From: an uncultured Syntrophaceae bacterium
GTDB taxonomy: Bacteria; Desulfobacterota; Syntrophia; Syntrophales; UBA2192
Direction of reading: 5' to 3'
DNA length: 64,000 nucleotides
Assembly: GCA_964547985.1 (NCBI GenBank)
Contig: CAZJPV010000003.1
Location: 21,003-85,002 of the forward strand
Position 1 is the stretch's first letter. Every line of letters starts with the position of its first letter. The notes beneath the pieces were generated by a model. That model did not search any database and was not told the DNA's origin. It was given only the letters and a program-made list of their open reading frames with translations. This document shows positions 737 to 63,463 of this stretch, piece by piece. The translations under genes and the position numbers were made by a program.

Positions 737-1486
737 TCAAGCTTTTTTGTCCTTTACGTACCAGTCGATCTGGCGGCAAAGTCCCCGGATCATCTTCACA
801 TCCCGGGAGCGAAGATCAACCCGCGAGAAAAAGCGCCGGACGTTCTGCATCCAGTACTCGGGGTTCTGGGGGTTGATGAACCCTATTCGAACAAAGAGAT
901 CCTTGATCTGGATGTACATTCCTTCCAGTTCCGCCGACATGGCCAGGCGCGGCTTGAACTGCTCGGGTACGGCCGTCGAGGCAAGCAAGATTTCGTAGCA
1001 GACGATCAGGACGGCGTGCGAGAGGTTCAGGGATCTGAGCTTCTCCGAGGTTGGGATGGCGATGAGGGCGCGACAGTAACGCAGTTCATCGTTCGTGAGG
1101 CCGATGTCCTCGGGGCCGAAGAGAATGGCCACCTTGTTCTTCTGCGAAACGTCCACAAGCGTTCTGGCGACCTCCCGTGGACTTCCGGAGGGCTGGCGCA
1201 TGGAGCCGGTCCTGGAGGTGGTCCCCACAACGCAGTGAAAACCGCCGAGCGCCTTATCGAGGCTATCAACAAACCGGATCCGTTCAACGACATCGAGGGC
1301 CAGATGAGTCGACATCTGCCGGATCTTTTCCATATCGGGAGCCTCACGGGTCACAACGATGACATTCTCCATCCCCATGTTCTTCGCACAGCGGGCAACA
1401 GAACCGATGTTTCCCGCGTGTTTGGGTTTGTTGAGAACAAGGGTGATATTCTTTTTTCTGGCCTTGAGCGGTTCCATGTTTTTCAT
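737..1486 (-). CDS. trmJ: SpoU/TrmH-class RNA 2'-O-methyltransferase, TrmJ-like
   Basis: 249 aa. The N-terminus ITLVLNKPKHAGNIGSVARCAKNMG and the later ILFGPEDIGL / IPT...SLNLSHAV are SPOUT methyltransferase motifs. The C-terminal extension is as in TrmJ. Confidence 0.8.
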   Translation of the reverse strand: MKNMEPLKARKKNITLVLNKPKHAGNIGSVARCAKNMGMENVIVVTREAPDMEKIRQMSTHLALDVVERIRFVDSLDKALGGFHCVVGTTSRTGSMRQPSGSPREVARTLVDVSQKNKVAILFGPEDIGLTNDELRYCRALIAIPTSEKLRSLNLSHAVLIVCYEILLASTAVPEQFKPRLAMSAELEGMYIQIKDLFVRIGFINPQNPEYWMQNVRRFFSRVDLRSRDVKMIRGLCRQIDWYVKDKKA

Positions 1487-1549
1487 TGCCCTCCCGTATC
1501 GCCTCTGCTATTTATCCTCACAATCGTCCGTCGAGGAAATCCAGAATTG

Positions 1550-2257
1550 ATGTCCCCTCCCGCAAAAGTAAAGGGCCTTGCAGAACTCCTTTCAGGCTCC
1601 TCCGGCCTCACCGGCCTCACGCCCGGGGATAAGGAAATTTCACTCCTGGAATCATACAGGAAGGAGATCCTTTTCTGGAACAACAAAATGAACCTGGTCT
1701 CCGTCAAGTCCCCTCTCGATATTCCGGTGAAACACTTCATCGATTCTCTAACGGCTGCTCCCTATCTCCCCCGGAAAGACGTCGCGGTGCTGGACATCGG
1801 CGCCGGTGCGGGATTTCCGGGCATCCCGTTGAAAATCTGCATGGGCGCCCTGAAGCTCTGTCTTCTCGAGTCCCAGCGGAAAAAGGCATCCTTTCTCAAG
1901 CACCTTGTCCGTACGCTCGATCTCCATGACGTCACCGTCGTCCACAAACGGGCGGAGGACCTTATTCGTGAAGGGTCTTACAGGGAATTCTTCGATACAG
2001 TGATCTCCCGGGCCACTTTGAAACTCCCGAAGCTTCTCGGGATGGGCAATCATTTCCTCTCCGCCGGTGGCATCCTTATCGCGATGAAGGGTGCCGACGT
2101 TGAAAAGGAACTGCGTGACGCCCTCACGTTCTGCCCATCGAACCGCATGGTCTTTGTTGACAGCCACGCGCTCTCTCTTCCCGAAACGGCCGACCGGCGA
2201 AAAATTCTTGTCTTTAAAAAAACGTGGCCTCCGGGTCTCTCCGGGACCCCCTTCTAG
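1550..2257 (+). CDS. rsmG: 16S rRNA (guanine527-N7)-methyltransferase RsmG (GidB)
   Basis: This is the C-terminal 235 codons of the 653..2257 ORF, starting at ATG 1550 (MSPPAKV...). The SAM motif is VLDIGAGAGFPGIPLKI. The upstream 299 codons are antisense to trmJ and were rejected. Its position next to parAB is classical. Confidence 0.85.
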   Translation: MSPPAKVKGLAELLSGSSGLTGLTPGDKEISLLESYRKEILFWNNKMNLVSVKSPLDIPVKHFIDSLTAAPYLPRKDVAVLDIGAGAGFPGIPLKICMGALKLCLLESQRKKASFLKHLVRTLDLHDVTVVHKRAEDLIREGSYREFFDTVISRATLKLPKLLGMGNHFLSAGGILIAMKGADVEKELRDALTFCPSNRMVFVDSHALSLPETADRRKILVFKKTWPPGLSGTPF

Positions 2258-9451: not shown

Positions 9452-11947
9452 ATGGAACAGATGTACCAGAGGAATCTTCCGGTAAACATAGAAGATGAGA
9501 TGAAAAAATCGTACATGGATTACGCCATGAGCGTGATCATGGGCCGGGCCATCCCCGACGCCCGGGATGGGCTTAAGCCCGTACACCGTAGGGTACTCTA
9601 TGCCATGTACGAAATGGGGAACCGGTACAACAGGCCCTACAAAAAATCCGCGCGAATCGTCGGCGACATCATCGGAAAGTACCATCCCCATGGGGACGCC
9701 GCCGCCTACGACACGATCGTTAGGATGGCTCAGGATTTCTCCATGCGCTATGTCCTGATCGACGGCCAGGGCAATTTCGGCTCTGTCGACGGCGATCCGC
9801 CGGCGGCGATGCGTTACACGGAAATCCGGATGTCCCGGATTGCCGACGAGCTTCTCGCCGACCTGGAGAAGGAAACCGTAAATTTCGTGCCCAACTACGA
9901 CGACTCCCTCACGGAGCCGACGGTCCTTCCGGCGAAGGCGCCCTTCCTCCTCCTGAACGGGACGTCCGGCATTGCCGTGGGTGTGACAACAAACATCCCG
10001 CCCCACAATCTGGGCGAGGTCGTGGACGGGACGATCGCCCTTGTTCGAAACCCCGAGATCACCATTCAGCAGCTTCTCAAGCACGTCCAGGGACCGGATT
10101 TCCCGACGGCCGGTTTCATCAACGGCCGCGAAGGCATCATCCAGGCCTACACGACGGGGCGGGGGTCGATTCGGATGAGGGCCAGGGCGCTCATCGAGCG
10201 CAACGCCCGCAGTGACCGGGAGAGTATTATCATCACGGAGATTCCCTACCAGGTCAACAAAGCCAATCTCATTGAAAAGATCTCCGACCTTGTCAGGGAC
10301 AAGAAGGTAACGGGCATAGCCGACCTTCGTGATGAATCGGACCGCGATGGCATCCGCATCGTCGTCGACCTGCGGAAGGACGAGGTGGCGGGTATCGTGC
10401 TGAACCAGCTTTTCAAACACACCCAGATGGAGTCCACCTTCGGGATCATCATGCTGGCTATCGACAACGGCCAGCCCAGGATTTTCAACCTCAAGGAGCT
10501 TCTCCAGCGGTTCATCGACTTCCGGAAGGAGGTCATCACCAAACGCACAATCTTCGAGTTGGGGAAGGCGAGCGAGCGGGCCCACATCCTCGAGGGTCTG
10601 ATCAAGGCGCTCGAGAACATCGACCGGGTGATCGCAGTCATCAAGGCCTCGAAGAACCCCGAGGAGGCTGCGACAGCCCTGATGGCAAAGTTCGGCCTCT
10701 CGGAAGTTCAGGCAAAGGCCATCTTGGACATGAGACTCCAGAGACTCACGGGGCTCGAGAGGGAAAAGATTGTCTCCGAGCACGACGAGCTGGTCAAGCT
10801 GATCAAGAAACTCAAGGAGATCCTCGCCGATCCGCAGAAGGTCCTCGACATCATCGTGGAAGAACTCGAGGACATCAAGAAGCGCTATGGTGATGAGCGC
10901 CGGACCGAGATTGTCGCCTCCACCGAAGACATCGACATCGAGGATCTCATCGTCGAAGAAGACATGGTCGTGACCGTCTCGCATCAAGATTATATTAAGA
11001 GAAACGCCGCCAGCCTCTACCGCATCCAGAGGAGGGGAGGCCGGGGCAAGGTCGGTATGGGGACCAAGGAAGAGGATTTTGTGGAGCATATCTTCATCGC
11101 CTCAACCCACAGCTACATCCTGATCTTCACCGACCAGGGCCGGGTCCACTGGCTGAAGGTGTACCAGGTTCCGCAGGCGGGCCGGGCGGCGAAGGGGAAG
11201 GCCATTGTCAACCTCATCAACATCGGGGAAAAAGAAAAGGTGGCCGCGATTCTTTCGGTAAAGGATTTCGAACCCGGGAAGTACGTCGTCATGGTCACGA
11301 GAAAGGGGATCATCAAGAAGACCGAGTTGGAGGCCTTCTCGAACCCTCGATCCGGCGGCATCATCGCCATCACAATCGACGAGGGAGATGTCCTCATCGA
11401 TGTCAAACAGACTCTCGGTGACCAGGAGATTTTCCTCGGGACCAAAAAGGGGATGGCCATTCGCTTCAAGGAAGACGATGTGAGAGCCATGGGGAGAACG
11501 GCCATGGGGGTCATCGGCATCCGGATGGATGAAGATGACGAACTCGTGGGCATGGAAATCCTCACCGAAGGGAACACCATCCTGACGGCCTCCGAGCGCG
11601 GGTACGGCAAGCGCACCGAGGTGGCCGAGTACAGGCTCCAGTCGAGGGGCGGCAAGGGCATCATCAACATCAGGACGACAGAGAAGATCGGCTTCGTCGC
11701 CGGCATCAAGCAGGTGACCGGCGAGGAGGATATCATGCTGATCAGCAATACCGGCAACATCATCCGGCTGCGGGTTGCTGATCTTCCCGTCCTCCACCGC
11801 AGTACCCAGGGCGTCCGCCTCATCGAGCTGGGATCCGAGGAGAGCCTCGTGGGCATCGCCCGCGTCGAGCGAGAGGCTGAAAGCAAGGAAGAGGAGACCG
11901 CCGAAGACGACACGGCCCCTGAGGAAACGGAAGGTGAAGACAGTTGA
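9452..11947 (+). CDS. gyrA: DNA gyrase subunit A
   Basis: 831 aa. Active-site region AAMRYTE and the QRDR-like [13 protein letters not shown]. It has beta-pinwheel CTD repeats and an acidic tail. Confidence 0.98.
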
Positions 11948-11980
11948 GGCGGACGGATTTCTTTCCGCTCGGTTCAATTC

Positions 11981-12397
11981 ATGAAGACATACAAGCCAAT
12001 CGACCATACCGCTGACCTGCGCATCGAGGTCTTCGGGAAAGACGAAAAAGAGATCTATCAAAACGCGGGGATGGCGGTGCATGACCTGATTGCCGATCTC
12101 CGTCACGTCAAGCCGAAGGAGGTCCGGAAGGTCATCGTTGAAGGGCGGGACCGTGAAGACCTTCTGGTCAATTTTTTGCGGGAAATCCTCTACCTGTACA
12201 ACGGCGAGCACTGGCTCCTGAAAAAGCTCTCCATCGGGAAGATCGGGCGCGGGAAGATCGAAGCGACGCTCAGGGGCGAGGCCTTCGACAGGTCGAGGCA
12301 CAGCCTCAAGCACGAGATCAAGGCGGTGACCTACCACCAGGCCGAGGTGAAAGAAACACCGCGGGGGTGGAAGGCAAGGGTGATATTCGATGTCTGA
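11981..12397 (+). CDS. archease (RtcB activator family)
   Basis: 138 aa. The N-terminal HTADLRIEV motif and the C-terminal KAVTYH are typical of archease. It overlaps the rtcB start by 8 nt. Confidence 0.85.
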   Translation: MKTYKPIDHTADLRIEVFGKDEKEIYQNAGMAVHDLIADLRHVKPKEVRKVIVEGRDREDLLVNFLREILYLYNGEHWLLKKLSIGKIGRGKIEATLRGEAFDRSRHSLKHEIKAVTYHQAEVKETPRGWKARVIFDV

Positions 12398-13832
12398 CAT
12401 CAGACTGAAACGGATGGATGAGTACCGCTGGGAGATCCCGCCCTTTGGGGGTATGAGGGTCCCCGGGATCATCTATTCCAGCGAAAAGCTCATGAAGGGC
12501 CTCGAGAAGGACGAAAGCCCCAAACAGGTGGCGAACGTCGCCCACCTGCCCGGCATCGTCCGGTACTCCCTTGCCATGCCCGATATCCACTGGGGTTACG
12601 GCTTTCCCATCGGGGGCGTGGCTGCCTTCGACCTTCAGAATGGAATTATTTCACCGGGTGGTGTCGGCTATGACATCAACTGCGGGTGCAGGCTTGTCGC
12701 CACGAAACTGAAATACGACGATATCAAGGACAGTTTGGAGAAGCTCGTCACAGCGCTCTTCAGGGATATCCCCACCGGCGTCGGCTCCACGGGCGTGCTC
12801 AAGCTTGCACCCAAGGAGGAAAGAAGGGTTCTTGTCGAAGGCGCCCAGTGGGCCGTGAAAAACGGGTACGGCACGGCGGAGGATCTGGAAGCCACAGAGG
12901 ACGGGGGCCGGATCGAGGGGGCCGATCCCGACAGGATCAGCGCACGGGCGATGGCAAGAGGACGGGATCAGGTCGGCACTCTGGGATCGGGCAATCACTT
13001 TCTGGAAATCGAGATCGTCAGGGATATCTATGACGATAAGGTGGCCGCCGCTTTCGGTCTTGAGAAGGACCAGGTGGCCATCATGATCCACTGCGGTTCC
13101 CGGGGCCTCGGTCATCAGATCTGTGACGATTACCTGGCCCGGATGACGAAGCAGGTCAATAAACTGGGGATTAAGCTTCCGGACAGGCAGTTGGCCTGCG
13201 CCTATGTGCAGTCGGAAGAAGGACAGGATTACCTTGCCGCCATGGCCTGCGCGGCCAATTATGCCTGGGCGAACCGGCAGATGCTCATGCACTGGACGGG
13301 GGAGACCCTTCGGAGAGCCCTTCAGATAAGCCCCCGCGATCTCGGCATGAGACTCGTCTATGACGTCTGCCACAACATTGCCAAGATCGAGGAATTCAGT
13401 GTCGAAGGTGTGAAGAAGAGGCTCTGTGTCCATCGAAAAGGGGCGACGAGGGCCTTTTCGGCGAACCACCCAGCCCTGTCGGAGAAATACAGGCGCGTGG
13501 GGCAGCCGGTCCTCATTCCCGGCGACATGGGGACGGGATCCTATGTCCTGGTGGGGACGCAGAGGGCCATGGAAGAGACCTTTGGGAGCACCTGCCACGG
13601 CGCCGGGAGAGTCCTGAGCCGCGCACAGGCCATCAAAGCAGGCAAAGGGAGGGCTATCAAGAAAGAGATGGCCGAGCGAGGCGTCATCGTCATAGCGACC
13701 GGCAAAGGGACCCTGGCAGAGGAGATGCCCGAGGCCTACAAGGACATCGACGAGGTCGTCGAAGCGGTCCACGGGGCAGGTATCTCGCGTAAAGTGGCTC
13801 GCTTGAAGGCCGTCGGTTGCATAAAAGGGTAA
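12390..13832 (+). CDS. rtcB: RNA 3'-phosphate/5'-OH ligase RtcB
   Basis: 480 aa. Signature PDIHWGYGFPIGGVAA, GSGNHFLE and HCGSRGLGHQ metal/GMP-histidine motifs. Confidence 0.95.
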   Translation: MSDIRLKRMDEYRWEIPPFGGMRVPGIIYSSEKLMKGLEKDESPKQVANVAHLPGIVRYSLAMPDIHWGYGFPIGGVAAFDLQNGIISPGGVGYDINCGCRLVATKLKYDDIKDSLEKLVTALFRDIPTGVGSTGVLKLAPKEERRVLVEGAQWAVKNGYGTAEDLEATEDGGRIEGADPDRISARAMARGRDQVGTLGSGNHFLEIEIVRDIYDDKVAAAFGLEKDQVAIMIHCGSRGLGHQICDDYLARMTKQVNKLGIKLPDRQLACAYVQSEEGQDYLAAMACAANYAWANRQMLMHWTGETLRRALQISPRDLGMRLVYDVCHNIAKIEEFSVEGVKKRLCVHRKGATRAFSANHPALSEKYRRVGQPVLIPGDMGTGSYVLVGTQRAMEETFGSTCHGAGRVLSRAQAIKAGKGRAIKKEMAERGVIVIATGKGTLAEEMPEAYKDIDEVVEAVHGAGISRKVARLKAVGCIKG

Positions 13833-13868: not shown

Positions 13869-13947
13869 ATAAATAAACATAACGGTGTCAGGCAGCGACT
13901 TCATCTTTTCAGACCGGTCACCTGCCATTGACCATTCAACCGTCTTT

Positions 13948-13966
13948 GTTCGGCGGACCGCCGAAC
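13948..13966. terminator. palindromic hairpin between the convergent rtcB and grx-like genes (no U-tract)
   Basis: GTTCGGCGG-A-CCGCCGAAC is a perfect 9-nt inverted repeat. No T-run follows on either strand, so it is only terminator-like. Confidence 0.35.
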
Positions 13967-13978
13967 ATGTCAGACCCC

Positions 13979-14185
13979 TCAGGTACCGCCGTAACCGACC
14001 GTCACCTTGTCCCCCTCGACGATCACGGGGACCTGGCGTTTACCGCCGGAGAGCTTCAGCATCTCCTGCAGTTTCGAAGAATGCGCCTTGACGTCATAAT
14101 ATTCAGCCCTGCTGCCATAAGCCGACCTGGCCTCGTCCGTGTAGGGTCAGCCTGCCTTTCCGTAAATAATCACTTTTCCTGCCAT
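13979..14185 (-). CDS. glutaredoxin-like small thioredoxin-fold protein with in-frame TGA (candidate selenocysteine) at the active site
   Basis: Hand translation gives MAGKVIIYGKAG-[TGA 14149..14147]-PYTDEARSAYGSRAEYYDVKAHSSKLQEMLKLSGGKRQVPVIVEGDKVTVGYGGT*. A GGAGGG RBS lies 9 nt upstream of ATG 14185. The TGA sits where the CPYC first Cys lies in Grx/NrdH-like proteins. The cis-Pro (QVPVIV) and GG motifs lie downstream of the TGA. Confidence 0.6.
14104..14129 (-). other. candidate bacterial SECIS-like stem-loop downstream of TGA 14149
   Basis: The mRNA segment CAGGUCGGCUUAUGGCAGCAGGGCUG starts 17 nt after the UGA. By hand it forms about 9 pairs with two 1x1 mismatches and a UAUGGC apical loop. 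It was not computationally folded. Confidence 0.3.
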
Positions 14186-14214
14186 GGCCTCGATCCCTCC
14201 TTGGTGTTCATCTG

Positions 14215-14964
14215 TCAGGGTGTGAAAAAATCTTCCTTTAAAAATTCGTTGATCCGGTAGTCACTGAATAAAGTGATTTCCTGGGTTATCCCATTAATAT
14301 CGTACCTCTCAAAGCGAAGGGGAAGCCAGAACTTTTTTGAGATGGTGATGAGGTATTTCTCCGGTAGCCTGCCCTCGATGTAATCCATCCCCCAGAACCA
14401 AAAGGTGATCTGATCATCGTATTCTCTCCACTCGGGGTTTCCCTGTTTCACGGCGCGAAGATTCTTAAAAAGGAAATCCAAAAAGTGTTCGATGCTTGTC
14501 TGGTCAAGCCGCTGCCCGGACGGGGACTTGAAAAGGGGGTGCGTGATGGAAAAACGAAGGGTGAAGGCCGATACAGCCTGGATCGGTCTCACGGAAAAAT
14601 CGTGATCCCCTCCCCGGTAGAAGATTGTCATACCCTCAAAGGGGTGAACAAAGTCCATCCGGTAGAGGTCCTTCCTCTTGAAATAGTACTTGAGATGGTA
14701 TCGCTTCTCCTCGAAACCCCCGAAGAAGTAAATATTTTCAACATCGCAACTGTAGTTGTCGATTGTCTGGAAGAATGATCGCATCTGGCGGGCAAGCGAT
14801 AACACACGGTTCGAAGATACCTCTGCCCATAACGTAACGGGGAAAGTCGTCAGGCCGAGTAAGATAATAAGGGCCGAAAGAATAATAATCAGGTAGGGCC
14901 CCGGAAAGAGGCCGCCCACCGGATCAGGCGGGTGTTTTTTTCTCAGATTCACGTTAGGCATCAT
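14215..14964 (-). CDS. hypothetical exported or membrane-anchored protein (possible LolA-like lipoprotein-sorting fold)
   Basis: 249 aa with an N-terminal hydrophobic anchor (GPYLIIILSALIILLGL). The beta-rich composition is the only basis for the fold suggestion. It is co-directional with the upstream lipoprotein gene and the downstream grx-like ORF. Confidence 0.55.
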   Translation of the reverse strand: MMPNVNLRKKHPPDPVGGLFPGPYLIIILSALIILLGLTTFPVTLWAEVSSNRVLSLARQMRSFFQTIDNYSCDVENIYFFGGFEEKRYHLKYYFKRKDLYRMDFVHPFEGMTIFYRGGDHDFSVRPIQAVSAFTLRFSITHPLFKSPSGQRLDQTSIEHFLDFLFKNLRAVKQGNPEWREYDDQITFWFWGMDYIEGRLPEKYLITISKKFWLPLRFERYDINGITQEITLFSDYRINEFLKEDFFTP

Positions 14965-14976
14965 GGCTGGCAGGTT

Positions 14977-16473
14977 TTACTTGAAAGTGAAATTGCTGTT
15001 GAACAGATCTGGGTCGTCAAAGTGGGCCCGTCCGCTCAGTAGGATTGCATGATGGCCTCGCTGCCTCATGCTTCCGATGGACGGGATCCCCATGGGAAAG
15101 AATATATAAGGTTCGATCCGATCCGTTTCCTGCCCGATGCCGCTCATATCAAAGAGGCTCACCCGTTCATGTTCTTCCCGGGGCAGGGATTCCAGCTCGC
15201 CGTATGGGGTGAGGTCGTAGAGGGTGAAGTCGCCGGGAATAGCCGCGGCAAGAAGTCCCTCGACCTGATGCCAGCCGGTCATGACCCGCATCACGGGCCT
15301 CTCGCCCTCTTTGATGTCGGGCATCCACGTGGGAACGAAGGGGTCAACGGCGAAGGCCCTCGGGATGATATGATCGATGCGATCCCTTTTCGGGGCGAAG
15401 AGGTGGTAACATCCGCAATTGTGCATGACGTCCCACATGAAGGGCTTTCCCTCCGGATCGAGAGATATTCTGAGGGTCAGCCCGTCCAAGCGGCCGTGCT
15501 CGATCCGGGGAGCCCTGTCGCCAGCCCGTTCAGGATACCAGAATACGTAGTTGATCTGGAGGATAGGATCCTTCTTGAGGAAGGCGTGGCTGATATAATA
15601 GTAGACGCCCGGTTTTGATATATCGACGTCAGGGAGTTTTCCTTTCCAGGCGACGCTGCCTATTTCGTCATAAGATGCTGCCACATCCTGTATGATAACC
15701 GGTGCAAAGGCGACAGCAAGCATCCTCTCCCCCTCAGGTTCCGGCCTCGGAATGTTCAGCGGGTTTTTTCTGGATACGTCAAGGATGGCCCTCACTTCTT
15801 TCTCGCTTATGAAACCCCGGATAGCCGGCGCGTAGGTTTTAAGCCGCCCCCGAACGGGGAGCTTCTCCGGCGGCGTCTCAAACCAGCTTCTGATGGTCTC
15901 CCTGACGTTATGGGTGATGATATTTTCCGGGATGTATGCCAGGGGGTAGAGCCCGAACACCCTCATGGCCGTCGAGTATTCGTCGGGCACGCCCACAAGC
16001 GGGATTAGCCTTTCATGGAAATCCTTCCGTGAAAGATCAGAGGTAAAAAGCGCACGGGAGCATGTCCCCATGCGGGACAGGAGGAGTCCGCGGTCCACCT
16101 TTTCCTCCGGCATGAGTGCCCGAACGGAAGCGTCGGGCAGGTTGAGGATCTCCTTTCTTCTCGCTATTGAGTCCATTTCCCTCATCCATTCAACCCACGC
16201 CTTTCTTTGGGCATCATTTCTGAGGTCGGTTTTCAGGGCGGCAAGGAAACGGTTGGTCCTGAGGTAGGGAAAACCGGGGACGGGGATACAAGATGCGTCT
16301 GATGTGCCGGCCTTGCGGACCACCTCGTCCACACCATCGAGAAATTTTTGGCATTCCGGGGGCCTGCCGAACTCCTCTGCTATTCTGTAAGATGCAGGCA
16401 CACATCCCGAAATAGCAGAAATCACGATCATGATTGGCAAAAACAGTCTTGTCAGCTTCAGAAGGCTTTGCAT
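14977..16473 (-). CDS. conserved hypothetical lipoprotein
   Basis: I prefer the internal start MQSLLKLTRLFLPIMIVISAISGC (lipobox ISGC) at 16473 over the track start 16575. There are about 498 codons of normal composition. No family was recognised. Confidence 0.65.
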   Translation of the reverse strand: MQSLLKLTRLFLPIMIVISAISGCVPASYRIAEEFGRPPECQKFLDGVDEVVRKAGTSDASCIPVPGFPYLRTNRFLAALKTDLRNDAQRKAWVEWMREMDSIARRKEILNLPDASVRALMPEEKVDRGLLLSRMGTCSRALFTSDLSRKDFHERLIPLVGVPDEYSTAMRVFGLYPLAYIPENIITHNVRETIRSWFETPPEKLPVRGRLKTYAPAIRGFISEKEVRAILDVSRKNPLNIPRPEPEGERMLAVAFAPVIIQDVAASYDEIGSVAWKGKLPDVDISKPGVYYYISHAFLKKDPILQINYVFWYPERAGDRAPRIEHGRLDGLTLRISLDPEGKPFMWDVMHNCGCYHLFAPKRDRIDHIIPRAFAVDPFVPTWMPDIKEGERPVMRVMTGWHQVEGLLAAAIPGDFTLYDLTPYGELESLPREEHERVSLFDMSGIGQETDRIEPYIFFPMGIPSIGSMRQRGHHAILLSGRAHFDDPDLFNSNFTFK

Positions 16474-16806
16474 TCTTGCAACACATGTTGTTTTTTTATT
16501 AATGTTAACAGAAAAAAGGTGGATTTGGAATGCGCAATCCTCTCCTTCGTTTTTTGGAGATCCGGTTTCGTCCACCCCGCCCGGGCTCCGGGAATTTATA
16601 AAGACGTTAAAAAATTTCTTTCAATGAATTGAACGTTTCTTTAAAAAATGAGTCATTACGGGAAATGGTCAAAAATCGCGATGGCGTAATAATCTGTTGA
16701 AATTCGTTAGGTTATAAAAATTTTTTGATTCAGATCAGTCTGGCATGCTTTTCTCAATAACAAGATGGCAAATAGGAAATAAAAAACTCTCAGGAGGATT
16801 AAGGAT

Positions 16807-35152: not shown

Positions 35153-36562
35153 TCAGGGTTTCTTGGCGACAGGGGTTTCCGATGTCTTCAGGGCGTTTAC
35201 CTTCCTGACGTAGGCCCTGATATCGAATTTCCGCTCCAGGCCGGCGGCGTTCATGTAGCGGACCTTGCCGAATATTTTTCTTTCCGTCCAGGGCCTGTCG
35301 TGCTTGCCGAAACACCAGGCCACGCCGGCAAAGCCGTTGGGGTCCCTCCCGTCGAGCTCGTAGCGGTTGTTCAGGTAAAGGGCGACGCGAAAGGCCTCTT
35401 CGGGCGTGGTCGTCCACTCCAGGATTTTCTTTCCCCAGTACATGCGCATGTAGTTGTGCATCTTGCCGGTCAAAACCATCTCTTCCTGGGCGGCGTTCCA
35501 GTAAGGGTCGTGCGTCCGGGCCTTCTCCAGGTCGGAACGGCTGTAGGTATATTCCCGCCGGTCTTTGCCGTGCTCCTTCAGGGTCCTTCGGGCCCAGTCG
35601 GGGAGAGCATCCGTGGAGTCATAGCGGGGGTTGAAGTGAACGAAGTTCATGCTGAGTTCACGCCTCACAACAAGTTCCTCGAGGTAAGCGCTTTTGATTT
35701 CCTCGGAGACCCCCTTCTTCTCCCGGACCTTCAGTGCAACATAGAGCGGGGATACCTGGCCGAAGTGGAGATAAGGGCTCATGTGCGATGAAAAGTCAAG
35801 TGCCGGATCGTTTCGCCTGTCCCTGTAGTATTTTAGTTTCTGCTCGATGAAATCGCCCAGGATCGTCTTTGCTCTGGCCGTGCCTCCCCGAAAGGTTCTT
35901 ACAGGCGGGACCGTCTTCTCTATGGGAAAGCTTTGCAGAATCTCTCCGGGGTCATCTATCGGCAACCCACCAAGGCGCATGGAAAGCGAGTCCTTCCCGA
36001 CGGGGGATTCCCTGACGGGTAGAAGATATGAATCGAGGAGCCTCTGGATCTTCGGACGCAGGGTCGCGGCGGCATATTCTTCTTTCGCGGAGGCAACCTC
36101 CACCGGGACGATGACATCGGATTCCACTTGGATGACGGGACAGGGGGCGCAACTTGCCACGTGCTCTCTCCAGGCCTTCTGGATGCGGAGGTAGCCCCGG
36201 TCCGTCACGACCAGGGCCGCTTCCTTTGCCATGTCGCAGGCGGCCTTCTCCGGCGACTGGCGGCGAAGGACGAGCTGGATCCCCCTTTTTTTCAGCGAGG
36301 CCTCGACGTCTTTCAACCCCTCCAGCATGAAGGTGTAGTGCCCCAGGTTCGCCTCGGGGAAGGCGTCGGTGATCCCGAAGAGAACGACTGGGGGAAGGCG
36401 GTGTTCATTTGCCAGGGAGACGGCATACTCCAGGGCATGGTTGTATTCCGCCCGCTGGGAAGCCTGCATCCAGTAAAGGACAAAACGGCCCTTCTGTGGC
36501 AATCGGTCGTTCAGCTGTCTTATGCGATCCGGCTGGATCAAGATGGTTACCCTGCGTGGCAT
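35153..36562 (-). CDS. phr: deoxyribodipyrimidine photolyase, class II type
   Basis: 469 aa. N-terminus FVLYWMQASQRAEYNHALEYA. The FAD-binding C-terminal half has GKMHNYMRMYWGKKILEW. Confidence 0.9.
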   Translation of the reverse strand: MPRRVTILIQPDRIRQLNDRLPQKGRFVLYWMQASQRAEYNHALEYAVSLANEHRLPPVVLFGITDAFPEANLGHYTFMLEGLKDVEASLKKRGIQLVLRRQSPEKAACDMAKEAALVVTDRGYLRIQKAWREHVASCAPCPVIQVESDVIVPVEVASAKEEYAAATLRPKIQRLLDSYLLPVRESPVGKDSLSMRLGGLPIDDPGEILQSFPIEKTVPPVRTFRGGTARAKTILGDFIEQKLKYYRDRRNDPALDFSSHMSPYLHFGQVSPLYVALKVREKKGVSEEIKSAYLEELVVRRELSMNFVHFNPRYDSTDALPDWARRTLKEHGKDRREYTYSRSDLEKARTHDPYWNAAQEEMVLTGKMHNYMRMYWGKKILEWTTTPEEAFRVALYLNNRYELDGRDPNGFAGVAWCFGKHDRPWTERKIFGKVRYMNAAGLERKFDIRAYVRKVNALKTSETPVAKKP

Positions 36563-52818: not shown

Positions 52819-53925
52819 ATGAAGGTTCCAACAAATCTTTTTTCCATGGCCCGCCTCACGCTTCACGGGGTCCTGCCCTGCGTGCACCGCTATCTCAACG
52901 GCTGGAGGGAAAAGGCGAGGAAGATCCCCGATCCGGAACTGCGAAGTCAGGCCCTCGCGAGTATCGAGACGAAGACCTTCCACTGCGAGGGAGGGGCCGT
53001 CCTCGCGCTGCTCGCGGGCGACCGGCGGGATGAAGCGATCCGTTTCATCGTTGCCTATCAGACGATCAGCGACTATCTCGACAACCTCTGCGATCGCAGC
53101 ACATCCCTGAACCCCGAGGACTTCCGCGCGCTGCACGAATCCATGCGCCACGCCCTGACGCCCGGCGTCCCACTCGAGAACTATTATCGCTTGCGTGATG
53201 AACAAGATGACGGCGGGTATCTGACCGCCCTGGTCAAAACCTGCCAGTTTGCCCTGGAGAGGCACCCGGCTTACGGCATGATAGCGCCGGCCCTTCACGA
53301 ACTTGCCGGTTATTACTGCGATCTGCAGGTCCACAAGCATGTCAGGAAGAAAGAGCGCCTGCCCCGGTTGAAGGCCTGGTTTGAATCTCACCGAAATGAT
53401 CTTCCGGAAATGAGCTGGTACGAGTTTGCGGCCTGCACCGGATCGACGCTCGGGATCTTCTGCCTCTTCTCACACGCCTTTCAGGAACGTTTCTCCGAGG
53501 ACCTCGCCCGCAGGGTCCAGGAGGCCTATTTCCCCTGGGTCCAGGGCCTTCACATCCTGATGGATTATTTCGTGGATCAGGAAGAGGACCGCCTGGGGGG
53601 CGATCTGAACTTCTGTTCCTATTACGATGACGAAAAGCAGATGGAATCGCGCTTCGCCCACTTCTTCGAGCAGGCCGACAGGGGCATCGCCCAGCTGCCA
53701 TCCCCGGAATTTCACCGGATGGTCATCCGGGGACTGCTGGCCGTTTATCTCTCCGACAGGAAAGTGGATGCCCAGGAAAGGGTCCGGAAACTGGCGAGGA
53801 GGATGATCCGACGCAGGGGTGGCATCACGCTCTTCTTTTTTCTACACGCCTGGTTCTATCGGCGGATCTTTGAAGGGACGCGCCGGCTCGACACCGGTAG
53901 AAAGGCGCCGGTGCCATCGGGTTAG
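52819..53925 (+). CDS. DUF2600 / tetraprenyl-beta-curcumene synthase (YtpB)-family protein
   Basis: 368 aa. The helical terpene-synthase-like pattern with ISDYLDNLCDR and LMDYFVDQEEDRLGGDLNF matches my memory of the YtpB family. The 3' end overlaps convergent nrdJ by 4 nt. Confidence 0.7.
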   Translation: MKVPTNLFSMARLTLHGVLPCVHRYLNGWREKARKIPDPELRSQALASIETKTFHCEGGAVLALLAGDRRDEAIRFIVAYQTISDYLDNLCDRSTSLNPEDFRALHESMRHALTPGVPLENYYRLRDEQDDGGYLTALVKTCQFALERHPAYGMIAPALHELAGYYCDLQVHKHVRKKERLPRLKAWFESHRNDLPEMSWYEFAACTGSTLGIFCLFSHAFQERFSEDLARRVQEAYFPWVQGLHILMDYFVDQEEDRLGGDLNFCSYYDDEKQMESRFAHFFEQADRGIAQLPSPEFHRMVIRGLLAVYLSDRKVDAQERVRKLARRMIRRRGGITLFFFLHAWFYRRIFEGTRRLDTGRKAPVPSG

Positions 53926-56051
53926 AAAGTACAGATCCCTGCCGCACATCCGCCGGAGTAGTCCGATCCGGCTGATACAAACTCTATTTCCGCAGATGCC
54001 CGTCCTTCTTTACTGCTGTAAAAGGACAGCACCTGCTCCTCACGGCTGCCGTACCGGTAAACCGTAATCCCCTTGCATTTCAAGTGATGGGCCCTCAGGT
54101 AGATGCTTCGGACATCTTCGACCGTCGAATCGGCCGGCAGGTTGATCGTCTTTGAGACGGAATTGTCCGTGAAGGTCTGGAAGGCACTCTGGATGCTCAG
54201 GTGCTCTTCGGGCGATACATCGAAGGCCGTTACAAAAAGTCTTTTCAGGTCGGCCGGGACGGCCCGGACCGTCTTCAGGCTTCCAACCCTTGCAATCTCG
54301 GCGATGACCTTCCGGCTGTAAATGCCCCTGCTCCGGGCCATCTCCTCGAAAATGGGATTGGTCTCGAAGAGTCTCGTCCCCGAAAGCACATTCCTTACGA
54401 AGCTCACAGCGAAGATGGGTTCGATACCGCTCGAACAGCCGGCAATGATGCTGATCGTGCCCGTGGGGGCGATGGTGTTGACGGTGGCGTTGCGCAGGCG
54501 AATGTTCTTCTGAGCATAAACGGACTGATCAAAGTTGGGGAAAACGCTCCGCTCCTCCGCCAGTTCCGCCGAGGCCCTCAGGGACTCACCGCGGATGAAG
54601 CGCATGAGCTTTCGGGCAAAATGGACGGCCTCGCCGCTGTTGTAAGGGATGCCGAGCCGGATCAGCATGTCCGCAAACCCCATGACCCCCAGACCGATTT
54701 TCCGGTTTCCGAAGGTCATCTCCCGGATCTGGGGTAAGGGGAAACGATTCACCTCGATGACGTTGTCGAGGAACCGGATGCCCCACCGGATGCGGTCCCG
54801 GAGACTCTGCCAGTCAATTTTCTTTCCCGCGACCATTTTATCCAGATTGATGGACCCCAGGTTACAGCTCTCAAAGGGCAGGAGGGGAAGCTCTCCGCAG
54901 GGATTCGTCGCCTCGATCCTGCCGATGCCGGGGGTGGGGTTCCTCCGGTTGATCTCGTCCAGAAAGATCAGCCCCGGGTCCCCCGTGCGCCAGGCCGCGT
55001 TGACGATGAGATCGAAGATCGCCCTGGCCTTGAGGGTCCGGACCTTCTCCTTCGTCCTCGGATTGACGAGGTCAAAGGGGCTGTTTTTCAGAACGGCCTT
55101 CATGAACCGGTCGGTGACACCGACGGAGAGATTGAAGTTCGTAAAGCGTCCCCGTTCCATTTTCGCTTCAATGAAGTCAATAACATCGGGATGATCGCAG
55201 CGCAGGATGCCCATGTTGGCTCCGCGCCTTCTTCCCCCTTGGACGATGACCCCCGTGGCCTGATCGAAGATGCTCATGAAGGAGACGGGCCCGGAGGCCT
55301 CTCCCTTCGTTGTGGAAACGAGATCCCCTTTCGGTCTTAACCTGGTAAAGCTGAATCCCGTACCGCCGCCCGTCTGATGGATTTTGGCCATGTTTTTCAA
55401 GGCATCGAATATACCGTCTATGGAATCTTCCACGGGGATGACGAAGCAGGCCGAGAGCTGGCCGAGGGCGGTCCCCGCATTCATCAGCGTCGGCGAGTTG
55501 GGGATGAATTCCAGGCTTTTCATCATGGAGAAAAATTTTTCCTCCGTCTCCTCGACGGACCGTGATCCCCGGAATGCTTTCTCTGCCTGTGCGATGTGAC
55601 GGGCCACACGCCTGAAGAGTGCCCCCGGCGTCTCCACGACGTTCTGGGCATCATCCTTGAGGAGATATCGTTTCTTCAGGATCTCCATGGCGTTGATGGA
55701 AAGCTTGAGGTCATCCCGGAGCCCCAGGGCTGCCTTGGCCGTGCGGATCTCAGCCCTCCGTTCCCGGTAGAGGATGTAGCTCCTGGCGATTTCGGTGTAG
55801 CCGGCCTTCATGAGGCCCCGCTCGACGATGTCCTGGATGGATTCGACATCGAGCGGCCTGCCGGCATATTGAGTGGAAATCTCCCTGAGGACGATTTCCG
55901 TGACGATTCCGGAGACAAAAGCGGCCCTGCTCTTTTCCTGGAGAACCTCCAGGGCGGCCCTGAAGATGGCGTTTTCGATTTTTCCCCTGTCGAACCTAAC
56001 GATCGATCCATCCCTCTTCTTCACCTTTTGCGGCAGGATGATTTTTTTCAT
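53922..56051 (-). CDS. nrdJ: adenosylcobalamin-dependent (class II) ribonucleotide reductase with an N-terminal ATP-cone
   Basis: 709 aa. ATP-cone (VKKRDGSIVRFDRGKI), catalytic NPCGE and SCNLGSINL motifs, and a C-terminal Cys pair tail (GGCAAGICTF). Confidence 0.92.
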   Translation of the reverse strand: MKKIILPQKVKKRDGSIVRFDRGKIENAIFRAALEVLQEKSRAAFVSGIVTEIVLREISTQYAGRPLDVESIQDIVERGLMKAGYTEIARSYILYRERRAEIRTAKAALGLRDDLKLSINAMEILKKRYLLKDDAQNVVETPGALFRRVARHIAQAEKAFRGSRSVEETEEKFFSMMKSLEFIPNSPTLMNAGTALGQLSACFVIPVEDSIDGIFDALKNMAKIHQTGGGTGFSFTRLRPKGDLVSTTKGEASGPVSFMSIFDQATGVIVQGGRRRGANMGILRCDHPDVIDFIEAKMERGRFTNFNLSVGVTDRFMKAVLKNSPFDLVNPRTKEKVRTLKARAIFDLIVNAAWRTGDPGLIFLDEINRRNPTPGIGRIEATNPCGELPLLPFESCNLGSINLDKMVAGKKIDWQSLRDRIRWGIRFLDNVIEVNRFPLPQIREMTFGNRKIGLGVMGFADMLIRLGIPYNSGEAVHFARKLMRFIRGESLRASAELAEERSVFPNFDQSVYAQKNIRLRNATVNTIAPTGTISIIAGCSSGIEPIFAVSFVRNVLSGTRLFETNPIFEEMARSRGIYSRKVIAEIARVGSLKTVRAVPADLKRLFVTAFDVSPEEHLSIQSAFQTFTDNSVSKTINLPADSTVEDVRSIYLRAHHLKCKGITVYRYGSREEQVLSFYSSKEGRASAEIEFVSAGSDYSGGCAAGICTF

Positions 56052-60940: not shown

Positions 60941-63463
60941 TCAAAATTGAACCCGCCTGTAGAAGACTCTTTTTGCAACCTCCGCAGAGATAACGTAGAG
61001 CAGTAGAACAAGCCCAATACCGATGATAAACCGGTTATCCAGGGAAACGAAGCCGAAGATGTTTCCTAGGGGGCTGAGGGGTAAAAGAATTGTTGCGACG
61101 ACGACGAGAATGGTTGTGATCAAAAGATACTTTCCGGGCCGGCTGGTGAAGAAAGGTTTACGGCTTCGAATGACCAGGACAATCATGGAGGCGGAAAGGA
61201 CGGATTCGATATACCAGCCCGTTCTAAACTCATCGACGGTGGCTTGAAGAACAAAGACGAGAAGGGCGAAGGTCAGGTAATCGAAAACGGAGCTCAGAAG
61301 CCCGAAGGTGAGCATGAATTGCTTGATGAATTGTATATCCCATCGCCGTGGCTTCTGGGTCAATTCCGCGTCCACACTGTCCGTGGCGATGGTCATTTCG
61401 GGAAAATCGGTCAGCAGATTCGTGAGCAGGATCTGCTTGGGCAGAAGGGGCAGGAATGGGAGGATCAGTGACACACCCGCCATGCTGAACATATTGCCGA
61501 AGTTTGCGCTTGTGGCCATAAAAACATACTTGAGCGTGTTGGCAAAGGTCTTTCTCCCCTCCCCGACACCCTGCAACAGGACGTTCAGGTCTTTTTCGAG
61601 AAGGACGATATCCGCAGCTTCCTTCGCCACGTCCACGGCACTGTCGACCGAGATGCCGACATCGGCTGCGTGGAGGGCAGAGGCATCGTTGATGCCGTCT
61701 CCCATGTAGCCCACAACATTTCCGGACTTTCTCAAGGCCGTGATAATGCGCTCCTTCTGGTTGGGTTCCACATCGGCAAAGACATCGAAGTCGTTGACCT
61801 GTTTTCGCAGGGCTTCGTCGCTCGTCTGCCGGAGCTCTGCGCCCGTAAGGATTTTCGATCCCGATAATCCAACTTGATCAGCGACCGTGGCCACGACGAG
61901 TGGATTATCACCGCTTAAGACCTTGAGCGAAATACCAAGTTTTTGGAGTTCACCTATGGTTTCGTGGACGCCGGGCTTGGGGGGGTCATGGAAGACAGCA
62001 AATCCCAGGAAAATCATGTCCTTTTCATAATCTTTCTTTATGACGGTTTCAGATGCCATATCTCGATAGGCAATCCCCAGCATGCGGAAACCGGCGCGGC
62101 TCGTTTCTGCGTACTGTTGATTGATATGATCACGGATGTTCGAAATACTTTTAATGGTGCCATCTGAGTCCAGGGCCTTCGAACACACCTCAAGGACATT
62201 TCTGAATGCCCCTTTGGTGATCAGGGTGTTTATACCCGTCCCCGATACGAGGATGCTCAGGCGCTTGCGGATGAAATCATAGGGGACCTCGTCAAGCTTC
62301 TGATAATCTGAAATATCCGGTGATACGGCGGCTACGATCGCTTCGTCAATGGGGTTGGTGAAGCCTGTCTGGTAAAGGGCATTCAGGTAGGCGTAGAGAA
62401 AAACCTTGTCGCTTTCGCGACCCCCGGCGTCGATGCATGAGCGAAGCCGAACAATACCCTCCGTGAGGGTCCCCGTTTTATCGCAGCAGAGAATGTTCAT
62501 GCTGCCGAAGTTTTCGATGGAGGAAAGACGTTTGACGATGACTTTTCGATCGGCCATCTTCCGGGCGCCGTGCGCGAGGTTGATGCTGATGATGGCCGGC
62601 AGGAGCTGTGGTGTGAGCCCCACGGCAAGAGCCAGGGCAAAGAGAAATGATTCCATGACAGGCCGATGAAGGTAGACGTTTATGGCGAAGATGGCGATCA
62701 CAAGCAAAAGCGTCACTTCCATGAGGAAGTAACCAAAGTGCCTGACACCATGTTCAAACTCCGTTTCAGGGGGCCTGAGTTTAAGACTCTCGGCGATCTT
62801 GCCGAATTCCGTCTCTTTTCCGGTTTTTACCATCAAGGCCTGAGCTGTGCCGCTGATCACATGGGTTCCCATAAAGAGGGTGTTTACCCTCTGGCTGAGC
62901 GGTGTATCGGAGGAAAGAATCTTTACGTCCTTTTCCACCGGGTAGGTTTCGCCTGTGAGCGTCGCTTCATCCACGAAAAGATCCTTCGATTCGAGAATCA
63001 GGCTATCTCCCGGAATGACATCTCCCGCATTCAGTATAACGATGTCGCCGGGGACCAGTTCTTCAATGGGAACATCCGCCGGCTGGCCGTCCCTCAAGGC
63101 CTTGGATTGGATCCGGACCATGGCGAGCAACTTTTCGACGGCGTGAACAGCGGTCCTTTCCTGCCAAAAACCTAAGAGTCCACTGACCACGACGATTGCC
63201 AATATGATCAGGGTATCCACGGGATCATGAAGGAAAAAAGATAAAAGCGCAGCGAAAATAAGGATGAGGATAATCGGGCTTTTGAACTGGGCAAGAAATA
63301 GCGTCAGGTCGTCGGTACGTTTTTTCGGTGATATCCGGTTCGGACCGAAATGGATCAGGCGCTCCTTGGCTGTCTGGGACGAAAGTCCGTGGCGGGTCGC
63401 TCCAAGACGATCAAGGAGTGCCTCGGGGGGAATGCTCCAGAAATTTAGGGAATTTTTATCCAT
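60941..63463 (-). CDS. mgtA: magnesium-translocating P-type ATPase (MgtA type)
   Basis: 840 aa. TGE, DKTGTLT, MLGDGINDA-like (YMGDGINDASAL) motifs and 10 TM segments. The N-terminal GLSSQTAKERLIHFGPN is typical of MgtA/B. Confidence 0.93.
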   Translation of the reverse strand: MDKNSLNFWSIPPEALLDRLGATRHGLSSQTAKERLIHFGPNRISPKKRTDDLTLFLAQFKSPIILILIFAALLSFFLHDPVDTLIILAIVVVSGLLGFWQERTAVHAVEKLLAMVRIQSKALRDGQPADVPIEELVPGDIVILNAGDVIPGDSLILESKDLFVDEATLTGETYPVEKDVKILSSDTPLSQRVNTLFMGTHVISGTAQALMVKTGKETEFGKIAESLKLRPPETEFEHGVRHFGYFLMEVTLLLVIAIFAINVYLHRPVMESFLFALALAVGLTPQLLPAIISINLAHGARKMADRKVIVKRLSSIENFGSMNILCCDKTGTLTEGIVRLRSCIDAGGRESDKVFLYAYLNALYQTGFTNPIDEAIVAAVSPDISDYQKLDEVPYDFIRKRLSILVSGTGINTLITKGAFRNVLEVCSKALDSDGTIKSISNIRDHINQQYAETSRAGFRMLGIAYRDMASETVIKKDYEKDMIFLGFAVFHDPPKPGVHETIGELQKLGISLKVLSGDNPLVVATVADQVGLSGSKILTGAELRQTSDEALRKQVNDFDVFADVEPNQKERIITALRKSGNVVGYMGDGINDASALHAADVGISVDSAVDVAKEAADIVLLEKDLNVLLQGVGEGRKTFANTLKYVFMATSANFGNMFSMAGVSLILPFLPLLPKQILLTNLLTDFPEMTIATDSVDAELTQKPRRWDIQFIKQFMLTFGLLSSVFDYLTFALLVFVLQATVDEFRTGWYIESVLSASMIVLVIRSRKPFFTSRPGKYLLITTILVVVATILLPLSPLGNIFGFVSLDNRFIIGIGLVLLLYVISAEVAKRVFYRRVQF

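Follow-up and report, generated by a model that had tools for sequence, protein, structure and literature searches.

A tiny glutaredoxin-like gene with two predicted selenocysteine codons, each with its own hairpin, in an uncultured Syntrophaceae bacterium

The stretch of DNA analysed here, referred to throughout as the window, is a 64,000-nt piece of contig CAZJPV010000003.1 (positions 21,003 to 85,002; GenBank assembly GCA_964547985.1) from an uncultured Syntrophaceae bacterium, and its minus strand carries a locus that comparison with relatives identifies as a genuine, unannotated gene of 71 codons for a tiny glutaredoxin (Grx)-like protein with two selenocysteine (Sec) residues. We consider it highly probable that the protein is a member of UXX-star family 1 in which each of two in-frame UGA codons is served by its own selenocysteine insertion sequence (SECIS) hairpin; that the two Sec residues act as a redox relay is about as likely as not. 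Both the family and the presence of two Sec in its members have been catalogued before, so the window instance adds little new knowledge and is a sound annotation fix, not a discovery.

Read directly and translated, the minus-strand frame 14185..13970 runs MAGKVIIYGKAG-TGA-PYTDEARSAYGSRAEYYDVKAHSSKLQEMLKLSGGKRQVPVIVEGDKVTVGYGGT-TGA-GGG-GTC-TGA, which we model as a coding sequence (13970..14185, minus strand, as are all features of the gene) for MAGKVIIYGKAG-U-PYTDEARSAYGSRAEYYDVKAHSSKLQEMLKLSGGKRQVPVIVEGDKVTVGYGGT-U-GV-stop, that is, 71 codons plus a stop, with Sec at positions 13 and 69. The sequence shows an ATG start codon at 14183..14185, a Shine-Dalgarno-like GGAGGG 9 nt 5' of it (14195..14200), and, 29 nt before the gene begins, the stop of an upstream open reading frame (ORF) of 249 aa (14215..14964). 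The first in-frame TGA (UGA-1, 14147..14149) lies in the active-site motif U-P-Y-T, where comparison with homologues places the Grx nucleophile; the second (UGA-2, 13979..13981) lies in a G-G-T-U-G-V tail whose U-x-x-stop pattern is kept in relatives; and the codon that we assign as terminator (13970..13972), 9 nt past UGA-2, is TGA here and TGA, TAG or TAA in relatives. An earlier description of the locus, made from the sequence alone, had pointed to a minus-strand ORF with an in-frame TGA at 14149..14147 and a GGAGGG ribosome-binding site, all of which is present. The start of its 68-codon ORF stands as well, but its end does not: the TGA at 13981..13979, taken there as the stop, reads as the second Sec codon and is followed by GGG GTC TGA.

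What kind of protein does this frame encode? Profile and homology searches were run with U replaced by C, and the best NCBIfam match was the equivalog NF041114, "UXX-star selenoprotein family 1", which the protein without its tail matches over positions 1-67 of 70 at 104.9 bits, against a curated cut-off of 72 bits. With C-G-V appended as a tail, the score rises by 8.8 bits to 113.7 and the match extends over positions 1-70 of 70; the three positions left unfilled in the shorter match are the codons beyond the supposed stop, which argues that 13981..13979 is a second Sec codon. The Pfam Glutaredoxin domain PF00462 covers residues 5-60, on either side of the first TGA (E 1.3e-7, 32.2 bits, cut-off 22.9), and the classical Grx and NrdH equivalogs stay far under their cut-offs (TIGR02181, 30.8 against 90; TIGR02196, 28.5 against 88.55; TIGR02194, 12.9 against 85.75). 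In the window sequence U-P-Y-T occupies residues 13-16 and the cis-proline segment is V52-P53; T16 is nearly invariant across the family, and the window protein has no dithiol-type UxxC site. For a homologue that shares 87% identity and has W in the Sec positions, the AlphaFold2 model has a mean predicted local distance difference test score of 80.8 and consists of beta1 (5-9), alpha1 (14-26), beta2 (27-31), alpha2 (36-46), beta3 (54-57) and beta4 (60-63), with residues 64-71 as a low-confidence tail and no helix past beta4. Foldseek places glutaredoxins at the top, 3ic4 with TMq 0.70 and E. coli Grx3 (3grx) with TMq 0.71; a profile search of the PDB gave no other kind of protein than glutaredoxins, and Foldseek and PDB sequence searches together return glutaredoxins and NrdH-like proteins. 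By these comparisons the window protein is a UXX-star family 1 member with a minimal Grx fold, beta1-alpha1-beta2-alpha2-beta3-beta4, and no C-terminal helix, the element that in classical glutaredoxins completes the glutathione site. The small Grx/NrdH layout proposed earlier agrees with this fold (PF00462, AlphaFold2, Foldseek), but the protein is not a classical UxxC Sec-glutaredoxin and stays below the cut-offs of the Grx and NrdH equivalogs.

The family has also been described under another name. A 2026 review of prokaryotic selenoproteomes enters it as "Distant Grx-like protein 1", assigns it two Sec and a UxxT motif, gives Zhang & Gladyshev 2008 as the reference for family 1, and cites Haft & Tolstoy 2025 (mSystems) for UXX-star family 2 and the HUGP/GUXX-star fusion (PMC13188914). 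Those parts of Zhang & Gladyshev 2008 that a term search brings up hold a generic 'Grx-like' UxxC entry only and nothing on a second Sec, and BSepDB does not mention UXX-star family 1 by name.

Evidence for recoding of UGA-1 comes from homologues. A search space of about 5.8 billion proteins yielded 104 homologue clusters: 39 have Cys at site 1 and end just ahead of the second TGA, 40 have G-W-P-Y-T at the first Sec site (the full-length ones also GG[TS]-W-G-V at the second), and 24 are N-terminally truncated fragments that start at internal GTG, TTG or ATG codons. The nearest relatives of the window protein, L112 and P0001, are 96% and 87% identical to it, and the closest genome-derived UXX-star proteins, from Syntrophales and Syntrophus, show 77% identity. 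The gene is present in 31 species-representative genomes (Syntrophales, Smithella, Pelotomaculum, Desulfotomaculaceae, Nitrospirae, Acidobacteriota/Vicinamibacterales), where site 1 is Cys (GK-x-G-C-P-Y-T) in 31 of 31 loci under a scan pattern that demanded Cys. A second scan, of metagenome DNA, used a degenerate pattern demanding TGA at site 1 and matched at least 120 loci, against only a handful of chance matches by rough estimate. Among the matches listed, the frame stays open through GG[TS]-U-x-x-stop in 116 of 120; of the four that do not, two are frameshifted, one is cut off by the end of its contig, and one (L107) has TAA in place of the second Sec codon. Homologues thus span both flanks of the first TGA and display a Sec/Cys pair at site 1 (31 genome loci with Cys, 116 listed metagenome loci with TGA), which bears out the earlier proposal that this TGA stands in for the active-site Cys and that the frame continues past it. 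We regard recoding of UGA-1 as Sec, at the Grx active-site Cys position, as supported by this comparison.

The same data speak to two simpler explanations of an in-frame TGA. One is that the locus is a pseudogene, a Grx-like gene broken by a nonsense mutation at its active-site codon; under the standard code the reading does end after 12 codons, and gene callers skip the locus. A broken gene would hardly account for more than 116 diverged homologues that share this TGA and keep the frame beyond it open, or for a hairpin that is much better kept in TGA forms than in Cys forms, by way of compensatory changes (see below), and we give decay practically no credence; the intact frames and the upkeep of the hairpin rule it out. 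The other is genome-wide reassignment of UGA to Trp or Gly (codes 4 or 25), to which the 40 clusters with W at the first site, and at both sites where full-length, lend some colour. In the window, TGA ends 22 of 38 long ORFs and is the commonest ordinary stop, so the standard code applies and UGA is not reassigned genome-wide; gyrA and other long genes are intact under code 11, and homologues have Cys at site 1, neither Trp nor Gly. Reassignment is therefore ruled out for the window by its stop-codon usage and has a negligible probability; for the W entries, the best explanation is faulty gene calling on short contigs from metagenomes.

Downstream of UGA-1, and still within the coding region, is a conserved hairpin, SECIS-1, whose core (AGGCC / loop AGGUC / GGCUU; 14119..14133, minus strand) lies at nt 17-31 counted from the U of UGA-1. 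The comparison drew on 112 distinct Sec-forms listed (111 in the formal pair counts) and 31 Cys-forms. In the Sec-forms nt 17-21 pair with nt 27-31, with 91.7% of cells paired (111 Sec-forms) against 67.1% in the 31 Cys-forms, and registers slid along the stem give at most 57% pairing in every case. Cells in which both partners have changed number 52 in the Sec-forms, against 14.0±2.9 in shuffles, and none of 500 shuffles reaches 52; in the Cys-forms there are 7, against 3.8±1.6, and 27 of 500 shuffles reach that number. Loop position G23 is kept in 111 of 112 Sec-forms, and the codon for Arg20 is limited to AGG, CGG or CGU in the same proportion. Pair 21-27, which joins the wobble bases of Ala19 and residue 21, is formed in 110 of 112 Sec-forms (C:G 76, U:A 28, U:G 5) and in only 13 of 31 Cys-forms; at this pair GCC/GCU goes together with Ser UCG/UCA, with Glu GAG/GAA and with Ala GCG/GCA, and at pair 18-30 all four Watson-Crick types occur among the Sec-forms. 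Compensation has thus arisen repeatedly, in different codons, and does not trace back to one inherited event. The stem-loop suggested from the sequence alone, at 14129..14104, finds no support: its region folds no better than shuffles (z +0.88), and it overlaps only the loop and 3' arm of the conserved hairpin.

Seven Cys-forms (L001, L004, L005, L008, L009, L011 and L017) retain the GCC-[A/C]GG-xCx-GCY hairpin of SECIS-1, which looks like a fossil SECIS left by recent Sec-to-Cys conversions.

At UGA-2, the end pattern TGA-x-x-stop is found in 31 of 31 genome loci and, among the matches listed, in 116 of 120 metagenome loci. Codon counts past UGA-2, taken over 145 distinct related sequences, give GGG 54, GGC 36, GGA 15 and GGT 10 at the first position (Gly), GTC 43, GTG 38, GTA 29 and GTT 21 at the second (Val), and TGA 81, TAG 32 and TAA 32 as terminator; Gly-Val is encoded in 106 of the 145, with all four synonymous codons in use for each residue. 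Synonymous variation together with a stop that always comes at the third codon indicates that the sequence past UGA-2 is translated and is not 3' untranslated region (UTR), and the TAA or TAG found in 64 of 145 relatives marks the final TGA, 13970..13972, as the true stop.

Directly past this stop, in the 3' UTR, lies a second hairpin, SECIS-2 (UGUUCGGCG / GUC / CGCCGAACA; 13947..13967, minus strand), with its loop at nt 24-26 from the U of UGA-2. The 42-nt stretch that holds it has a minimum free energy (MFE) of -16.8 kcal/mol (z -2.63). Of 145 relatives, 142 can form a hairpin here whose stem runs without interruption for 5 bp or more, and 125 reach 6 bp or more, against a shuffle mean of 46 and maximum of 66. 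The distance from the UGA to the loop centre has a median of 23.25 nt (interquartile range 23-25; 145 relatives), the stems are unrelated in sequence between lineages and covary, and the loops are mostly GUC, GGU, GUU or GGUC.

Could it be that only UGA-1 is recoded, with 13981..13979 a real stop and the G-V-stop and hairpin a 3' UTR or terminator feature? A homologue with Cys at position 69 has not been found among the homologues, and a hairpin right past the end of a gene could be a terminator. A terminator scan, however, gave nothing at SECIS-2, the hairpin is not followed by a T-run, and the spacing between UGA and loop is fixed at about 23 nt. An ordinary stop would also leave unexplained the two sense codons and stop in all the genome loci and nearly all the listed metagenome loci, the synonymous variation of Gly-Val, and the span of NF041114 across U-x-x. 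We judge a single recoded codon very improbable and continue with two.

Both hairpins can be set against the bacterial SECIS (bSECIS) consensus, which has a loop of 3-9 nt, a stem of 4-16 bp, a UGA-to-loop distance of 16-37 nt, an MFE of -7.5 or lower, and a G at loop position 1 or 2, most often with G or U next to it on the 3' side (PMC13188914). SECIS-2 agrees with this consensus throughout, with a stem of 8-9 bp, the 3-nt loop G-U-C, a UGA-to-loop distance of 20 nt, and energies of -11.6 to -16.8 kcal/mol, within the bSECIS limit. SECIS-1 agrees in everything except energy, with a 5-bp stem, the 5-nt loop A-G-G-U-C and a distance of 18 nt. Both place G-G-U-C at nt 23-26 from their own UGA.

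How would the ribosome tell the Sec-encoding UGA-2 from the stop 9 nt later? The terminal TGA lies about 11 nt from the SECIS-2 loop, outside the 16-37 nt spacing range, and distance to the hairpin loop alone appears to make the distinction. In the decoding that we propose for this organism, SelB and tRNA-Sec would read each UGA as Sec, recruited by that UGA's own small hairpin, and the third TGA, too near the SECIS-2 loop, would terminate translation. The same triplet thus serves as Sec codon and, 9 nt on, as stop within one gene, an arrangement found also in 81 of 145 relatives. In L107 (about 1359..1590), TAA occupies the second Sec codon, yet GGG GTG TGA and a hairpin are still present downstream; the C-terminal Sec may have been lost recently, or the TAA may be a sequencing error.

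Several observations weigh against the picture of two Sec codons, two hairpins and a redox relay. The SECIS-1 core is weak, at -5.8 kcal/mol with a family median of -6.0, against the -7.5 or lower of the bSECIS model (PMC13188914), and its region reaches -10.9 kcal/mol only in a 50-nt context whose outer pairs are unconserved. RNAalifold, run on 111 Sec-form sequences, returned no consensus pairs for SECIS-1; we attribute this to a hairpin too weak for the energy model, and explicit pair counts with controls were used instead. A search of the whole window against Rfam gave no match at the gathering threshold and, near the locus, only a chance long non-coding RNA at E <=10. Because Cys was not seen at the C-terminal Sec position among the homologues, site 2 is without the Sec/Cys-pair argument that site 1 enjoys. 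A subgroup of 81 aa (L157, 1501..1780, and L158), above the NF041114 cut-off, has a full CPFC site and still bears a C-terminal Sec (U-S-V-stop), its genes ending in ...LFGGT TGA TCC GTA TGA, with a correctly spaced hairpin past the gene end (GUCUCU-CGUGA-AGAGAC in L157, loop at nt 22-26); since the tail Sec is kept beside a CPFC site, U69 is more than a substitute resolving residue. Genes for SelA, SelB, SelD and tRNA-Sec were not found within the 64-kb window, where ARAGORN detected no tRNA and the 10 largest ORFs considered as candidates encode different enzymes, among them a 2-oxoacid oxidoreductase, a photolyase, NrdJ and an Mg-ATPase. Finally, neighbour clustering over 147 related loci did not find a conserved operon partner that would point to a substrate, the best cluster occurring in only 17 loci.

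What might two Sec residues do in so small a protein? The U-x-x-T site of the window protein is without a resolving Cys. In glutaredoxins, a Gly-Gly segment past beta4 borders the active site, and since Sec69 lies two residues past G66-G67, it could plausibly reach Sec13. We propose that U13 and U69 form a two-centre redox relay, with an intramolecular diselenide in the window protein and a selenenylsulfide in Cys13 forms, in which the Sec tail, being mobile, would pass reducing equivalents on to a substrate, or capture it, much as the GCUG tail of thioredoxin reductase does. Such a relay between active-site and C-terminal Sec has about an even chance of being correct. That U13 and U69, separated by 56 residues and each served by a SECIS of its own, make up a natural intramolecular diselenide between the Grx active site and a swinging C-terminal tail, and with it a self-contained relay of very low potential in 71 residues, is a tentative idea to which we would give somewhat poorer odds.

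The same two-Sec gene could instead encode a small chaperone or carrier whose selenols bind a soft metal or metalloid (Hg, As, Cd, Cu, selenium), not an oxidoreductase. The 81-aa CPFC subgroup appears to share an operon with two genes of the thioredoxin fold (Thioredoxin_4 and Thioredoxin_3), a rhodanese and a permease of the ArsP_1 type, and U-x-x-T is without the second thiol of the classical redox CxxC; a metal, metalloid or chalcogen-carrier role is also suggested by the selenoproteome review (PMC13188914). Against this, neither the window nor the 147 related loci show a recurrent metal-resistance neighbour (the best neighbour cluster being the one of 17 loci), and the fold, the cis-proline and the GG motifs are of the thiol-disulfide oxidoreductase type. 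We consider metal or metalloid binding unlikely, and a redox function is the reading that we favour.

Convergent with the gene lie gyrA, archease and rtcB in tandem (9452..13832), a synteny common to only about 10 closely related metagenome loci, all of one clade. The population from which the window comes has been assembled repeatedly in ENA (ERZ27245614, ERZ27247973) and JGI (3300025145) metagenomes, and one protein that shares a 90% cluster with its RtcB carries the annotation of a Deltaproteobacteria bacterium MAG. Upstream on the minus strand, neither the 249-aa ORF nor a 532-aa ORF beyond it (14977..16575) has a Pfam or NCBIfam match, and the "LolA-like" label that the sequence-only reading had given to the upstream gene finds no support in either database. 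In 7 related metagenome loci this ORF pair likewise adjoins the UXX-star gene, but L112, the closest relative, lacks the pair and has its selenoprotein gene flanked by rtcB and the 91-aa ORF. A plus-strand ORF of 110 aa (13928..14260) runs antisense to the selenoprotein gene and is of the type that a gene caller could choose instead; the minus-strand frame is so strongly conserved that this antisense ORF is almost certainly spurious. Elsewhere in the window are genes for a photolyase (35153..36562), a B12-dependent ribonucleotide reductase (53922..56051) and a Mg-type P-ATPase (60941..63463). A redox-motif scan of the window for further read-through selenoprotein ORFs returned 311 noisy candidates, of which four were checked by eye and were unconvincing.

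The value of the locus lies in annotation, and in the clean example of dual Sec decoding that it would offer. Existing gene calls are empty in ENA and give only a 27-aa fragment in JGI, so the earlier remark that standard ORF calling misses the locus was correct. Public protein sets systematically misrepresent the family, with Trp at Sec sites or fragments of about 40 aa, and a gene with two Sec codons, two SECIS hairpins and TGA as both Sec and stop would be a useful test case for selenoprotein gene finders. If our reading is true, the gene is also a compact natural model of two SelB-dependent decodings on one short mRNA, one through a coding-region SECIS and one through a 3'-UTR SECIS. UXX-star family 1 is widespread in anaerobic sediment and groundwater lineages, where it may act as a redox relay or as a metal or metalloid carrier; we know of no characterised member.

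Comparison with known systems places the window protein squarely within UXX-star family 1 (NF041114). It shares the length of about 70 aa, the Grx fold, the [U/C]-x-x-T site, the C-terminal U-x-x-stop and the two Sec, differs in nothing of substance, and is an unannotated instance from an uncultured Deltaproteobacteria-type population. The HUGP/GUXX-star fusion (NF045501) and UXX-star families 2 and 3 (NF041211, NF047338) share the Grx-like module and C-terminal Sec, but the window protein, a stand-alone domain, scores below their cut-offs (54.9 against 325, 53.7 against 100, and 56.3 against 97, respectively). Classical Sec-glutaredoxins (PF00462, UxxC; Clostridium oremlandii Grx1, Geobacter) are alike in the thioredoxin/Grx fold, in Sec at the place of the N-terminal nucleophilic Cys, and in a SECIS inside the coding region just past the UGA; the window protein departs from them in its U-P-Y-T site without a resolving Cys, in the missing helix after beta4, and in the second Sec in the tail.

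Two further systems offer partial parallels. SelL-type selenoproteins form a diselenide, with both Sec in a single UxxU motif. They resemble the window protein in having two Sec within a small thioredoxin-fold protein, for which a diselenide is conceivable, whereas in the window protein 56 positions separate the two Sec, and each has its own SECIS. Mammalian thioredoxin reductase ends in Gly-Cys-Sec-Gly, and its recombinant expression in E. coli relies on a SECIS after the stop codon. The likeness here lies in a Sec few residues from the C-terminus, in a flexible Gly-rich tail, in the exchange with an internal redox centre that we propose for the window protein, and, for the recombinant enzyme, in a SECIS that necessarily sits in the 3' UTR directly past the stop. 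In contrast to thioredoxin reductase, the window protein has no flavin/NADPH domain and no adjacent Cys in its tail, its internal centre would be the Grx-type site on the same 71-aa chain, and the arrangement is natural and bacterial, not engineered.

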